From the NCBI GenBank assembly GCA_037444485.1, contig JBBIMI010000001.1, positions 32,001-96,000 on the forward strand: 64,000 bases of DNA, given 5' to 3'. The first letter of the stretch is position 1, and every line of letters starts with the position of its first letter. Origin of the DNA: Candidatus Micrarchaeota archaeon. Its GTDB lineage: Archaea; Micrarchaeota; Micrarchaeia; Norongarragalinales; Norongarragalinaceae. The notes beneath the pieces were generated by a model. It had not been told where the DNA came from. It ran no database searches and worked only from the letters and a program-made list of their open reading frames with translations. The position numbers and the translations under genes were made by a program. Of this stretch, positions 2,964 through 56,453 are shown piece by piece.

Positions 2964-3021
2964 TTTTGAATCGCGTTGCTTGATTTATTTGGTATTAACT
3001 TGAATGCGTTTGACTCCACTA

Positions 3022-3519
3022 CTATTTTTGCTGGTTTTGTTGGTTTTGACCTTGTTTTTGCTTGAATCTCCACGTGTTTACGAGTGAAGTCCACTCGCTG
3101 CCGACGTGCTTCAACGCTTCCCCAAACCGGTTTGAAACAGAAAGCAGCATTTGATGCCGCTCGTCTTTAGTGCTTTGGCCGGACGGGTTTCGCCTGCTTC
3201 TGGCAAGCATTCCAACGCGCACGAGTTTGGGAATCACTAGATTTCGCAGCGTTGAGTTCGCAACCCCGTTTTCAAGCATCCACGCATTCAATTCCTGCCC
3301 TGAAACGCCTTCCCGCGTGCTTAAAAAATCTATGAGTTTCACCGCGATTTCGTATTGTTTTTTCTGTAGGTCTGGAGGGAATACTAGAGCTAGAACGTCT
3401 TTTGCTTCCCAACGCGCTTCCAAACTCATTGGAAGATCATCGTAAACGAATTTCAACGCGGTTTTTGAAGGAATTCCTCTAGAGAAAGGTGTTTTCAACG
3501 ATTCTGAAACGCGCTGCAT
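3022..3519 (-). CDS. Hypothetical winged-helix-like protein
   Basis: HTH-like segment (SGQELNAWMLENGVANSTLRNLVIPKLVRVGML) followed by a wing and a C-terminal helix. Confidence 0.6.
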   Translation of the reverse strand: MQRVSESLKTPFSRGIPSKTALKFVYDDLPMSLEARWEAKDVLALVFPPDLQKKQYEIAVKLIDFLSTREGVSGQELNAWMLENGVANSTLRNLVIPKLVRVGMLARSRRNPSGQSTKDERHQMLLSVSNRFGEALKHVGSEWTSLVNTWRFKQKQGQNQQNQQK

Positions 3520-18674: not shown

Positions 18675-19757
18675 ATGGCGAACAATTTCGTAAAAATAAT
18701 TGCGAGCGCGCCGAACAAAATTCATGTTGCTGGCGAGCACAGCGTCGTTTACGGTGGAATAGCTTTAATCGCTCCAGTTGAAGTGGATGAAAAACGCAAC
18801 GTTGTGGAATTAATCGCTGAACCCGGCCAGCCTCAGCTAGAGTTTATAGGAAAAGGTTACGGAAAAACCGGGAGGGCAGTACTGCATGCTGACGGGACGA
18901 TGAACGGGGACAACGAATGGAAGCCGATGCTTGAAGTAGCGCAACACGTTTTAGAAGACTGCGAAAAAAACTTGAAAGACTTGAATACTAGTATAACCGC
19001 TGAACGGTTTTTCAGTGGTGCGCCGAAAGGAACAGGCAATTCAGCTTCAATTCCAGCAGCATTCGCTTCCGCGTTATACGCGTTTTTGGGAAAAAAACCA
19101 AGCAAGCAAGAACTTTACGATGCGGCTTTCATTGCGGACAACGCGTGGCATGGCGGAAAGTCAAGCGGTGGAGACGTGCAAGCAGTAATTTCGAACCATC
19201 CACAAAAATTCTGGAGAGAATTCACTCGAAAAGGCGTAAAACCACGTTACCAAGACTTTAGTGGAACGCTTCCGAAAAACACTGTTTTAGTGTTAATAGA
19301 TTCTTTCAGGGGTGTTGGAGAGAAATCCACTACGGCGCTCCAAATCGAGAAATTCGCTGCAGCTAACGGAATAACTAGAAAACCTTTCGAATTAACTGAA
19401 CAGGAAAGAAAAAAAATATGTAAGCCTTACGATGAAGTCATCGAAAAAATAGAAAGCGAAATGCGTTTTGACGGAAACCCTGAAAAACTCGGGGCATACT
19501 TCAACGAAAACCACGAGTTACTGAAAAAATCAAATGTTTCAAGTCCAGACATTGAAGAAGCTATTTCAGTAAGCAAGCGAAACGGCGCTCTAGGAGCGAA
19601 ACTAATCGGCGCCGGAGGCGTTGGGGGGGCAGTCATAGCCCTCTGCATGCGAGAAAAAACGCGTTTAATAACGAATGCGCTTGCGGAAAAAAAATTTAAT
19701 AGTTGGACGGTCAAATTCGCTGAAAAAGGAGCTTGCGTGGATTCGATGCAAAAATGA
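18675..19757 (+). CDS. mvk: Mevalonate kinase
   Basis: SAPNKIHVAGEHSVVYG, PKGTGNSAS, HGGKSSGGD, GAKLIGAGGVGG. Confidence 0.88.
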   Translation: MANNFVKIIASAPNKIHVAGEHSVVYGGIALIAPVEVDEKRNVVELIAEPGQPQLEFIGKGYGKTGRAVLHADGTMNGDNEWKPMLEVAQHVLEDCEKNLKDLNTSITAERFFSGAPKGTGNSASIPAAFASALYAFLGKKPSKQELYDAAFIADNAWHGGKSSGGDVQAVISNHPQKFWREFTRKGVKPRYQDFSGTLPKNTVLVLIDSFRGVGEKSTTALQIEKFAAANGITRKPFELTEQERKKICKPYDEVIEKIESEMRFDGNPEKLGAYFNENHELLKKSNVSSPDIEEAISVSKRNGALGAKLIGAGGVGGAVIALCMREKTRLITNALAEKKFNSWTVKFAEKGACVDSMQK

Positions 19758-19805
19758 TATTTTGGATGGAGTCAAGTGATGGGCTCGTATTAAAATAATA
19801 GTAAT

Positions 19806-20514
19806 ATGAAAATGAAAACTTTTGTTATAGGCGTTGACGAAGCGGGCAGATTGCAATAACTCAAGTTATTGCAAGCCAAAAGGACCCGTCATCGGCCCAC
19901 TAGTAGTCTGCGCTTTCGCCGCGCCAGAGTCTTCGCTTTCTTCACTCAAGAGCGCGGGTGTCAAGGATTCTAAGTTGCTGACGCCTGAAAAGCGCGAGGC
20001 GCTCGCGCGCGAGTTGCGCGCGTTTCCGCACGCCCTCGCCGTCGTCACCGCGCGGGAAATTACTGAGGAAATGGCGCGCAAGGTTTCATTGAATGAAGTG
20101 GAAGCGCGCTTCATGGCTAGCGTGATTCAAGCAGTCGTAGAGAAAGTTGGTTTCGAGAACGTGGCGCGAATCATGGTTGATTCTCCTGACCCGACTACAG
20201 TAAAGTTTAAAGCGCGGTTGCGCAAGTATTACGACGCTGATTCGAAAGTTCATTGCGAACACAAGGCGGACTTGCGTTATACTGAAGTAGGCGCTGCTTC
20301 AATTCTAGCGAAAGTCTTGCGCGACGCTGAAGTCGCTAAAATCAAGGAGTTGTTCGGTGAAGACTTTGGAACAGGGTATAGTCACGATGCGGCGACGATC
20401 GCATTCCTGAAAAAACACTTGCGTGACCCGCGGCTCACGGAATTCGTGCGGTGGAAGTGGAGCACCGCAAAAAAATTGAGGGTCACGCAGTTAGAGTTAA
20501 ACAAATTCCTATAA
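19806..20514 (+). CDS. rnhB: Ribonuclease HII, split by a 31-nt insertion (join 19806..19849,19881..20514)
   Basis: Joined product MKMKTFVIGVDEAGRGPVIGPLVV; also DSK, HKAD, AASILAKV, GTGY and C-terminal PIP-like QLELNKFL. Confidence 0.9.
19850..19880 (+). other. Candidate BHB-type intron in rnhB mRNA
   Basis: GGGC-AG^A-TTGCAATAAC-TCAA-GTTATTGCAA-GCCA-AA^A; 10-bp perfect hairpin; cutting after the 2nd nt of each bulge restores AGA GGA CCC. Confidence 0.75.
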
Positions 20515-50146: not shown

Positions 50147-51433
50147 TTGAAAATAAAATCATTTACAGCACGTCAAATACTAGACTCGCGTGGGAAACCA
50201 ACAGTAGAGGTTGAGTTGAATGGATTTAAGGCAAGCGTTGCTTCAGGTGCTTCAACAGGCTCTTTTGAAGCGTTTGAGTTGCGGGATGGCGCAAAAGCTT
50301 TTTTAGGTGATGGGGTTCTGAAAGCAGTCGCAAATACGCTTTTTATTTCACGAAAACTCACCAACAAAAACTTTTCTTCGCAACAAGAGTTCGACGAGGC
50401 GTTGCTTTCCCTCGACGGCACGCCAAACAAAAACAAACTCGGCGCTAACGCCATCCTCCCAATTTCAATCGCTTTTTCTCGCGCTTTATCAGCCGCAGAA
50501 AAAAAACCATTACGAGTTTTCCTACAAAAAGAACTTTCATGGAAAATGAAAAAAAGAGTGAAAAATACAGGGAGGGAAGCGCTTCCAATCCCTCAATTTA
50601 ATCTTATCAACGGCGGGCGGCATGCTGGAATCAAGAATGATGTTCAAGAACATTTATTGATTCCAGCCCGTGCAAAGACTTTTTCTCAAGCGCTTCAAGT
50701 AGGTGCTGAAGTTTACGGGGTTTTGAAAAAAATCTTGGTGAAAAAGTTTGGCGTTCGCGCGGCGCTTGTCGCCGACGAGGGTGGTTTCGCGCCTCCTGTT
50801 TCCAGCGTAAGTGAAAGGTTGGAATTGATTGACGCTGCAATTGAGGAAGCTGGTTGGGGTGGGGTGGCGTTTCTTGGATTGGATTGCGCCGCTTCAGAGT
50901 TTTACGAACCTCGAACAAAGGTTTATTGTGTTGGTGGAAAAAAATTTTCAGTTGGAGAATTAATTGATTTTTACGAGTCTTTATTGAAGTCATTCAAGAT
51001 AATCTCATTAGAAGATGGTTTAGCTGAAGATGATTGGAGTAGTTGGCGTGAATTGATGGCGCGTTTTGGTGGGCGGATTCAAATCGTTGGCGACGATTTG
51101 CTTGTGACGAACGTTTCAAGAATCAAGAAAGCAGTTGAATTACGCGCTGCTAATGCATTATTGTTGAAGCCTAATCAAATCGGAACTGTTTCTGAAACCC
51201 TCGCCGCTGCAGCGTTAGCTAAAGATAGTGGTTGGCAAGTGATTGTTTCGCATAGGTCTGGCGAGGTTGAAGATTGTTTTATAGCTGATCTCGCAGTAGG
51301 AATCGGCGCAAGTCAATGCAAGTTCGGCGCGCCGGCGCGAGGTGAGCGGGTGGCGAAGTACAATCAATTACTTAGGCTCGAAGAAGAAATAGGTTCGAAG
51401 AACTTCGCTCGTTTTCCCTTCAAGACACATTAA
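50147..51433 (+). CDS. eno: Enolase
   Basis: ILDSRGKPTVEV, SGASTG, DEGGFAP, VGDDL, KPNQIGT, SHRSGE, ERVAKYNQLLR. Confidence 0.95.
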   Translation: MKIKSFTARQILDSRGKPTVEVELNGFKASVASGASTGSFEAFELRDGAKAFLGDGVLKAVANTLFISRKLTNKNFSSQQEFDEALLSLDGTPNKNKLGANAILPISIAFSRALSAAEKKPLRVFLQKELSWKMKKRVKNTGREALPIPQFNLINGGRHAGIKNDVQEHLLIPARAKTFSQALQVGAEVYGVLKKILVKKFGVRAALVADEGGFAPPVSSVSERLELIDAAIEEAGWGGVAFLGLDCAASEFYEPRTKVYCVGGKKFSVGELIDFYESLLKSFKIISLEDGLAEDDWSSWRELMARFGGRIQIVGDDLLVTNVSRIKKAVELRAANALLLKPNQIGTVSETLAAAALAKDSGWQVIVSHRSGEVEDCFIADLAVGIGASQCKFGAPARGERVAKYNQLLRLEEEIGSKNFARFPFKTH

Positions 51434-56060: not shown

Positions 56061-56188
56061 GGGCTCGTAGCTCAGCTTGGCAGAGCGACCGGCTCTTAAG
56101 CGAAAAACTAAGCGAAAAACAGCAAGCGTTGTTTTTCTCGCGGTTTCGGGAAACCGGTAGGTCGAGGGTCCGAATCCCTCCGAGCCCG
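56061..56188 (+). tRNA. tRNA-Lys(CUU) with 54-nt intron at 37/38 (56099-56152)
   Basis: GGGCTCG/CGAGCCC acceptor, GCTC/GAGC D stem, ACCGG/CCGGT anticodon stem with loop CTCTTA^A, GAGGG/CCCTC T stem. Confidence 0.9.
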
Positions 56189-56453
56189 CTCTTTAACGCC
56201 TTCCTTGAACCCTTTAAAAAGAATGGTAAGGTTTTTATTTCACTTTAACGTAAGTTTCTCTTGCGGATTCTGTGAAGGTGGGTTGAACTGGTCGCCCTGC
56301 CGGCTTCAGGATGCCGCTTCAGGCAGACTGGGTTGGCCTAATTCTTTTTAAGGCGACCAATTCTCTTTTTCATCTTTGTTTTTTCACCGCAAGGTTTTAT
56401 TTACTTCTCGCGTTTTCTTACTCAACGATTTCTTCCAGAAAGTGGTTTTTTAA

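Follow-up and report, generated by a model that had tools for sequence, protein, structure and literature searches.

The interrupted rnhB gene

The window, by which we mean the whole stretch of 64,000 nucleotides that was analysed, carries a gene for RNase HII, rnhB, on its forward strand. In the window, an open reading frame at 18675-19757, putatively GHMP-kinase-like by its motifs, ends 48 nt upstream of it. The rnhB gene itself is divided between two reading frames. The first starts with the ATG at 19806, reads MKMKTFVIGVDEAGR, reaches an AGA codon at 19848-19850, continues with LQ and ends at a TAA stop codon at 19857-19859. The second is open from 19882, begins GPVIGPLVV, encodes 210 aa and has a stop codon that ends at 20514; its product matches positions 9-198 of the 199 positions of the Pfam RNase_HII profile (E 7e-38). 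The gap between the two frames is 31 nt and lies inside the catalytic motif. A 23-nt tandem direct repeat (two copies, 74% identity) was also seen at 19905-19950, in frame inside the second part of the gene.

The insert contains a hairpin, TTGCAATAAC-TCAA-GTTATTGCAA, at 19851-19874, which was computed as an 11-nt inverted repeat with 100% complementarity. It occurs at one site in the window when both strands are searched, against none expected from 100 shuffles, and the insert is present as a single copy in the whole genome (0.96 Mb in 58 contigs, G+C 47.5%), even when up to 4 substitutions are allowed. An exon-2 protein search of this genome (G000) gave one match only and thus no second rnhB. 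A contig made by a second assembler from the probable source run did not differ from the window at any position between 19300 and 20700. The insert is therefore no artefact of one assembler, since an independent assembly, of the same sample, is identical. An earlier reading of the sequence only had claimed that the motif GVDEAGR/GPVIGP is broken by 31 nt with a perfect 10-bp TCAA-loop hairpin and an in-frame TAA, that the remainder of the gene is intact, and that an assembly error should be considered; the first two claims hold in every detail given above, and the identical second assembly speaks against the error. The elements of the locus, named according to the intron interpretation developed below, are as follows.

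19806-19849, plus strand: rnhB exon 1, starting with the ATG and ending with AG of the Arg codon; codes for MKMKTFVIGVDEAG(R) with the catalytic Asp-Glu of DEAGRG
19836-19843, plus strand: 5' strand of the outer helix (in exon 1); GACG 19836-39 faces CGTC 19887-90, and C19843 faces G19882
19844-19847, plus strand: exon strand of the central helix, GGGC; with GCCA 19875-78 it forms 3 bp and one G.A
19848-19850, plus strand: 5' bulge AGA, which is the Arg codon; predicted cut after 19849
19850-19880, plus strand: candidate intron, 31 nt; its excision would join AG+A to GGA CCC, giving R-G-P
19851-19874, plus strand: inner helix, the perfect 10-bp hairpin with loop TCAA; contiguous with the 5' bulge on one side and with GCCA on the other
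19875-19878, plus strand: intron strand of the central helix, GCCA; GCC is invariant among 8 genomes, in part through the search pattern (see below)
19879-19881, plus strand: 3' bulge AAA; predicted cut after 19880
19881-20514, plus strand: rnhB exon 2, with the last base of the Arg codon, GPVIGP... (210 aa) and the stop codon TAA

Because 19850 and 19881 are both A, removal of 19850-19880 or of 19851-19881 gives the same spliced product. The geometry is that of a canonical bulge-helix-bulge (BHB) motif, in which each bulge lies 3' of its central-helix strand, and the order along the strand is GGGC, AGA, hairpin, GCCA, AAA. The flanks proposed in the sequence-only reading, a bulge AGA, a helix GGGC/GCCA of 3 bp plus G.A and a bulge AAA, were located at 19848-50, at 19844-47 with 19875-78, and at 19879-81, respectively. 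Its cutting rule, after the second base of each bulge, takes out exactly 31 nt and yields AGA GGA CCC in our hands too. The same rule is given for the cbf5 introns, which are cut between the second and third bulge residues (PMC2738675). In the canonical register the outer helix consists of one C-G pair, a 3x4 internal loop and then 4 bp (GACG/CGTC). This weak outer helix and the G.A mismatch in the central helix of this copy are weak points.

The same insertion site in relatives

Searching with the exon-2 protein, we found rnhB in 38 of 41 genomes (40 relatives and our own), and 30 loci were examined among the matches listed. The D-E/D-x-G-R-G motif was unbroken at 24 of these loci, which read GVDEAGRGPVIGP without a break, and at the other six, our own included, it was broken exactly between R and G. 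A DNA pattern derived from the interrupted loci matched 8 of the 68 genomes of the order, and a reversed-pattern control matched none of the 68. The intron-bearing eight (G000, G016, G021, G044, G014, G004, G034 and G043) belong to three families, and three of them (G016, G021 and G044) to one genus. For two, G043 and G044, the pattern used made AGR and GCC obligatory, and the invariance of these columns is therefore partly built in. A pattern match in G093 was judged by eye to be due to chance. The comparison with relatives that the sequence-only reading had called for thus returned the same R/G site interrupted in 8 of 68 genomes, with helices that covary.

The inserts of the eight genomes measure 29, 31, 33, 33, 35, 37, 39 and 43 nt, which makes seven different lengths, and every one of them blocks translation: five shift the frame and the three in-frame ones each contain a stop codon. 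All eight are built alike: NGGC and AGA are followed immediately by the hairpin, after which come GCCN, a triplet and GGN. Defined by two 3-nt bulges and a 4-bp helix, the motif has AGA and NNN flanking NGGC/GCCN in 8/8, and all four central pairs form in 6/8. The AGA bulge does not vary in the eight intron-bearing genes, and the 3' bulge is AAA, ATA, AAG or AGA, with a third base that always completes an Arg codon (AGA or AGG). A cut after the second bulge base would leave AGA or AGG followed by GGN in each of the eight and so restore DEAGR-G. The copy in the window (3 bp + G.A) and that of G021 (3 bp + G.G) are relaxed BHB forms, and the former is the least canonical of the eight. In a relative that is about 90% identical (X2, from another study's run), 74 letters stand in place of the 124 letters of the window at 19758-19881, that is, of the spacer, exon 1 and intron.

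Structure was quantified on a MAFFT alignment of the eight sequences (A1) with a hand-written BHB structure. Paired cells amounted to 90.1%, compared with 75.6% in shuffles (none of 500 reached the observed value) and 28-45% when the partners were slid, and 11 of the 19 pairs had changes on both sides. In the inner helix all 10 aligned pairs change on both sides among the eight genomes. The fourth central pair (columns 29/75) is U-A in four genomes, C-G in two and unpaired in two (G.A in our own and G.G in G021); all three genomes of the genus g10 have G at its intron position, and the exchange between U-A and C-G may represent a single evolutionary event. The outer helix (columns 21-24/84-87) is paired in 100% of cells, its pairs being either invariant or changed on one side only; they never covary because they are constrained by codons.

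RNAalifold, applied to the same alignment, independently found the GGC/GCC helix, the AGA bulge and the hairpin. In its register the partner of column 29 is the first G of the Gly codon, which does not vary; the central helix then has 3 bp, the 3' bulge grows to 4 nt and the outer helix is extended, and the cut would therefore not be placed after the second of three bases. On these models the BHB motif itself is real, and the register of the 3' bulge is one of two alternatives. The GGC/GCC helix was present in the unconstrained minimum-energy folds of 6/8 sequences. For the copy in the window the minimum-energy fold (-23.8 kcal/mol) uses CGGG/CCCG and the BHB fold (-23.6 kcal/mol) lies 0.2 kcal/mol above it; in G021 the BHB-constrained fold is 2.1 kcal/mol above the minimum. 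The comparison with relatives strongly supports the intron interpretation, and we consider it very probable that the 31 nt at 19850-19880 constitute a BHB intron in the rnhB pre-mRNA, for which splicing is predicted from the DNA. Among the sequencing runs listed as containing this DNA there was no RNA run.

Other inserts, possible mobility and alternative explanations

The sequence-only reading had suggested that the genome may hold more mRNA introns, and three further candidates agree with this, two in rtcB and one in metK. In rtcB (contig C30) a 51-nt insert at 2998-3048 (L046:1338-1388) separates PDGHEG from YGFPIGG and shows the succession AAGG, ata, a 13-bp hairpin, CCTT, gaa; a second insert of 35 nt at 3126-3160 (L046:1466-1500) separates GGVGY from DINCG. 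Among the rtcB loci of the order the first site is occupied in 6/30 and the second in 4/30, and a compensatory change from C-G to U-A was seen among relatives in the central helix of the second site. As rtcB itself carries two BHB-type inserts, new RtcB would need existing RtcB. In a bacterial-type metK (C29:4946-5023; L126:947-1024) a 78-nt insert with two in-frame stops lies between GHPDK and ICDQ. It reads GGAC, aaa, hairpin, GTCT, aaa. Without it the gene would run on as GHPDK-ICDQ, and the exon-2 side matches S-AdoMet_synt_N positions 17-98 and the complete M and C domains. All three inserts combine a central helix of 4 bp with bulges of 3 nt, and in each case removal restores a conserved active-site motif. 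An archaeal-type metK was not found in the genome, and its cbf5 is uninterrupted in the TruB_N domain.

These inserts emerged from a homology census in which the ORFs of contig C1 (714 kb) of the relative G005 were compared with our genome; the rnhB of G005 is on its contig C3, outside the census. The final parse recovered both rtcB inserts and newly found that in metK, and a stricter parse missed the rtcB positive control. Four short split candidates of the census proved to be antisense or of low complexity, and other stop-containing inserts or splits (on C8, C9, C15, C19, C21 and C28) lacked either a convincing BHB or an identity in Pfam. When the genome was scanned for a BHB with frame repair only, using four filter sets, the scan lacked discriminating power because the counts at the true cut equalled those with the cut shifted by 1-2 nt (for example, 38 vs 23-34, or 26 vs 25-31). 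It recovered rnhB and the first rtcB intron, but most of its output joined genes that are neighbours. One candidate, in enolase at 50622-50674 of the window, was a false positive, the gene being uninterrupted.

In eight of 30 relatives (loci L050, L053, L061, L067, L069, L070, L072 and L075) the RtcB match starts at residue 3 of DINCG, within open frames of 610-963 aa. These loci probably contain a candidate intein at DI/NCG, three residues from the second rtcB intron site.

A second type of rnhB intron was found in G257, G317, G132 and G129 (loci L044, L085, L086 and L087), all of family f19, with inserts of 21-31 nt. Parsed by hand, it would be cut two bases downstream (after AGAG), with a central helix GCAG/CTG(C/T) and the product R-G-S-V. 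Since this second type lies two bases away from the first, the catalytic motif of rnhB appears to be an intron hotspot.

The distribution of the introns was examined on a tree built by maximum likelihood from 32 exon-2 proteins (those of the 30 loci, G043 and G044, with search matches that had no locus excluded). The genes follow genera, and intron presence has to change 8 times on the tree, with well-supported branches enforcing at least 5 of these changes; the intron-bearing G044, for example, is sister to the intron-free G023. The ends AACTGA.. and ..GGTTGCC are common to the introns of G016/G044 and G034, genomes of different families. In G034 a 375-aa ORF with LAGLIDADG_3 and HTH (winged-helix) matches (E 1.5e-8; L037:1487-2611, minus strand) lies directly upstream of the split rnhB; its open frame continues through rnhB exon 1 and the intron. 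A homologue of this endonuclease with 50% identity is located upstream of the split rnhB of G257, a member of another family (L044:480-1475, plus strand). Mobility is hinted at by the patchy occurrence on the rnhB tree together with the LAGLIDADG gene directly upstream in two relatives, and the rnhB intron is probably what is left of a mobile element, or was carried by one.

The same observations bear on the reading that the insert is a DNA-level device, a scar or immunity insert which destroys a homing-endonuclease target, namely the intron-free DEAGRG DNA, and is kept as it happens to be spliceable. This concerns the origin of the insert and is compatible with the BHB intron explanation. The many changes on the tree, the shared intron ends across families and the LAGLIDADG gene beside the split rnhB of G034 and G257 are what would be expected of it. 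Against this, the endonuclease gene adjoins just 2 of 12 intron-bearing loci, compared with 0 of 24 intron-free ones, a difference that with so few cases is not significant; it was found neither beside rnhB in the window nor in the flanks of the other 10 intron-bearing loci, and its cleavage specificity is putative. We regard such an origin as a possibility worth keeping in mind, with the chances somewhat against it. In our genome the G034 endonuclease has one match, a weak one on contig C14. Nine LAGLIDADG_3 matches were noted there (on C42, C12, C2, C6 and C14), six of them above the Pfam cut-off; several lie in free-standing frames of 170-225 aa, and one on C2 is near two tRNA genes.

Tentatively, and with less than an even chance of being right, the BHB introns in mRNAs of Micrarchaeota could make up a small, mobile population with the best-conserved active-site DNA as its homing target (rnhB DEAGR/G, rtcB HEG/Y/G and GVGY/D, metK HPDK/I), spreading or being retained by destroying the target sites of free-standing LAGLIDADG enzymes. 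DNA repair, the supply of methyl donor and the RtcB ligase would then depend on splicing by EndA and RtcB, and if this is true rtcB forms a self-referential loop.

Another explanation would be that a small palindromic element has inactivated rnhB and that the likeness to a BHB is coincidental. Translation does stop 17 codons in, the central helix of this copy is mismatched and its BHB fold is not the one of minimum energy. A dead gene would not be expected to keep exon 2 intact over 210 aa with a nearly full Pfam match, and seven other genomes are interrupted at the same phosphodiester by inserts of other sizes, with downstream frames open for 205-212 codons. The dN/dS values between intron-bearing rnhB genes were 0.100 (G044/G016), 0.134 and 0.141, and the value for two intron-free rnhB genes of the same genus was 0.129; when exon 2 was compared with that of the relative of about 90% identity mentioned above, 11 of the 13 listed codons that differ were synonymous. 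Judged by these values, the interrupted rnhB genes are under purifying selection, the opposite of the relaxed selection that the sequence-only reading had named as the mark of a simple pseudogene. The insert moreover belongs to no repeat family, and no other rnhB was seen in the genome that could have taken over. We therefore hold a dead gene to be very improbable.

The codons next to the intron are unusually uniform. GAC, in the 5' outer strand, is used in 8/8 intron-bearing and 17/24 intron-free genes, AGA in 8/8 and 6/24 (in two of the eight the pattern itself demanded AGR), and GTC in 8/8 and 2/24. This is consistent with selection acting on the exon strands of the helices, or with co-conversion on transfer. 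Between G044 and the intron-free G023 there are 9 mismatches in the first 30 nt of exon 2, compared with about 3.6 on average; two other segments reach 8-10, so that the excess is not distinctive.

It might also be argued that no splicing takes place and that the ribosome, as it does on gene 60 of phage T4, takes off at AGA and lands beyond the hairpin. A stop codon three codons past the take-off codon and a stable hairpin would suit such a bypass, and in G034 AGA stands directly before GGC, so that take-off and landing codons would match there. That match is found in 1/8 only; in 7/8 the triplet before GGN is AAA, ATA or AAG and does not match AGA. Hopping makes no use of the covarying NGGC/GCCN helix between exon and intron or of the fixed 3-nt bulges, and the same architecture recurs in rtcB and metK with other junction codons. 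Bypass is accordingly, in our estimation, even harder to credit than a dead gene. A self-splicing group I or II intron can be dismissed, as 31 nt compare with a ribozyme core of hundreds of nt and an Rfam search of 19600-20100 returned no family up to E = 1, and so can a repeated palindromic element (MITE, REP or RPE-like), as the insert is single-copy, shifts the frame and carries a stop.

Proposed splicing and comparison with known systems

The BHB intron explanation calls for a splicing endonuclease and a ligase, and candidates for both are present in the genome. EndA is encoded by one ORF of 388 aa with two tRNA_int_endo matches and an N-domain match, of which residues 13-388 align to PDB 4fz2/9w2k (E 6.8e-128). 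We take 4FZ2 to be the epsilon2 enzyme of ARMAN-2. By this alignment the genome, which is of a Micrarchaeota-type DPANN archaeon, is predicted to encode a full-length EndA of the epsilon2, ARMAN-2-like type. Its length corresponds to the 387-390 aa of the three-unit epsilon2 enzymes of ARMAN-1 and ARMAN-2, which are described as cleaving both strict and relaxed BHB motifs (Fujishima 2011, PMC3239211). RtcB is also encoded (497 bits). With the lax ARAGORN setting -i, under which intron placement is ambiguous, 21 of the 32 tRNA calls in the genome were intron-bearing. In the window, ARAGORN with introns allowed reported a tRNA-Lys(CTT) with a 54-nt intron at 56061-56189, and default ARAGORN on the whole window found no tRNA.

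The proposed course of events is as follows. In the transcript, exon GGGC would pair with intron GCCA, leaving AGA, the Arg codon, and AAA as bulges on opposite strands; the 10-bp hairpin would close one side of the motif, and the exon-exon pairing of GACG/CGTC together with the C-G pair the other. The epsilon2-type EndA would cut after the second base of each bulge, and RtcB would ligate the 2',3'-cyclic phosphate to the 5'-OH, which would restore AGA GGA and with it the intact catalytic motif GVDEAGRGPVIGP. The excised 31-mer would probably be circularised. That rnhB relies on EndA-type splicing, as had been proposed at the outset, is thus supported: cleavage and ligation of this RNA are what we infer from the anatomy observed at the shared site, the covariation, the purifying selection and the presence of both enzymes.

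For archaeal mRNAs, the intron of cbf5 in Crenarchaeota has stood since 2002 as the one documented case of splicing by proteins. If our interpretation is true, splicing of mRNA by the tRNA machinery is not the oddity of a single gene, as it would extend to eight genomes within one order, to a second type of intron found in another family and to the three sister introns of rtcB and metK. It would also be tied to the broad-specificity epsilon2 endonuclease, and gene callers would systematically mis-annotate such DPANN genes as frameshifted or truncated. EndA of the ARMAN-2 type has a broad substrate tolerance and that of ARMAN-2 has already been crystallised, and the inserts offer short, defined substrates with which to test what the enzyme needs outside a tRNA body. 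They are, in addition, a natural case for the origin and movement of protein-spliced introns.

Three known systems invite comparison. In cyanophage, a free-standing endonuclease, F-CphI, is reportedly encoded beside psbA, whose intron is a self-splicing group I intron, an arrangement said to support collaborative homing. The loci of G034 and G257 resemble it in that a free-standing LAGLIDADG gene is next to a gene with an endonuclease-less intron. They differ in that the intron is predicted to be spliced by proteins, and the window has no endonuclease gene by rnhB.

The introns of pre-tRNAs cut by the epsilon2 EndA of ARMAN-2 are closer, with the same predicted enzymes and the same motif of two 3-nt bulges and a 4-bp helix (PMC3239211; Kaneta 2018, PMC5829648). 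Unlike them, rnhB provides an mRNA as the substrate, so that splicing must restore the reading frame, and codons constrain the exon strands of the helices.

The closest relative is the cbf5 intron. Watanabe in 2002 and Yoshinari in 2006 are said to have described it as a BHB intron in the cbf5 pre-mRNA of Crenarchaeota. The sequence-only reading had called archaeal mRNA introns rare, with cbf5 as the classic case, and this agrees with our literature search, which covered full texts, with subscription journals largely outside, and found crenarchaeal cbf5 as the sole archaeal mRNA BHB intron; introns in rnhB, rtcB or metK, or mRNA introns of DPANN, were not mentioned in that literature. The gene is a different one in our case (rnhB) and so is the lineage (Micrarchaeota-type DPANN), and EndA is an (alpha-beta)2 heterotetramer in the cbf5 hosts and a three-unit epsilon2 enzyme here. 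Splicing of cbf5 was demonstrated by cDNA, whereas that of rnhB is predicted from the DNA sequence. The likenesses to the intron treated by Yokobori in 2009 (PMC2738675) are as follows: both introns are short, interrupt a protein-coding gene and form a BHB or relaxed BHB between exon and intron with the cut between the second and third bulge residues. That of cbf5 lies in the region of the catalytic Asp codon and that of rnhB in the DEAGRG motif, and both show patchy gain and loss among relatives in hosts whose EndA is of a relaxed-specificity type (PMC2738675).
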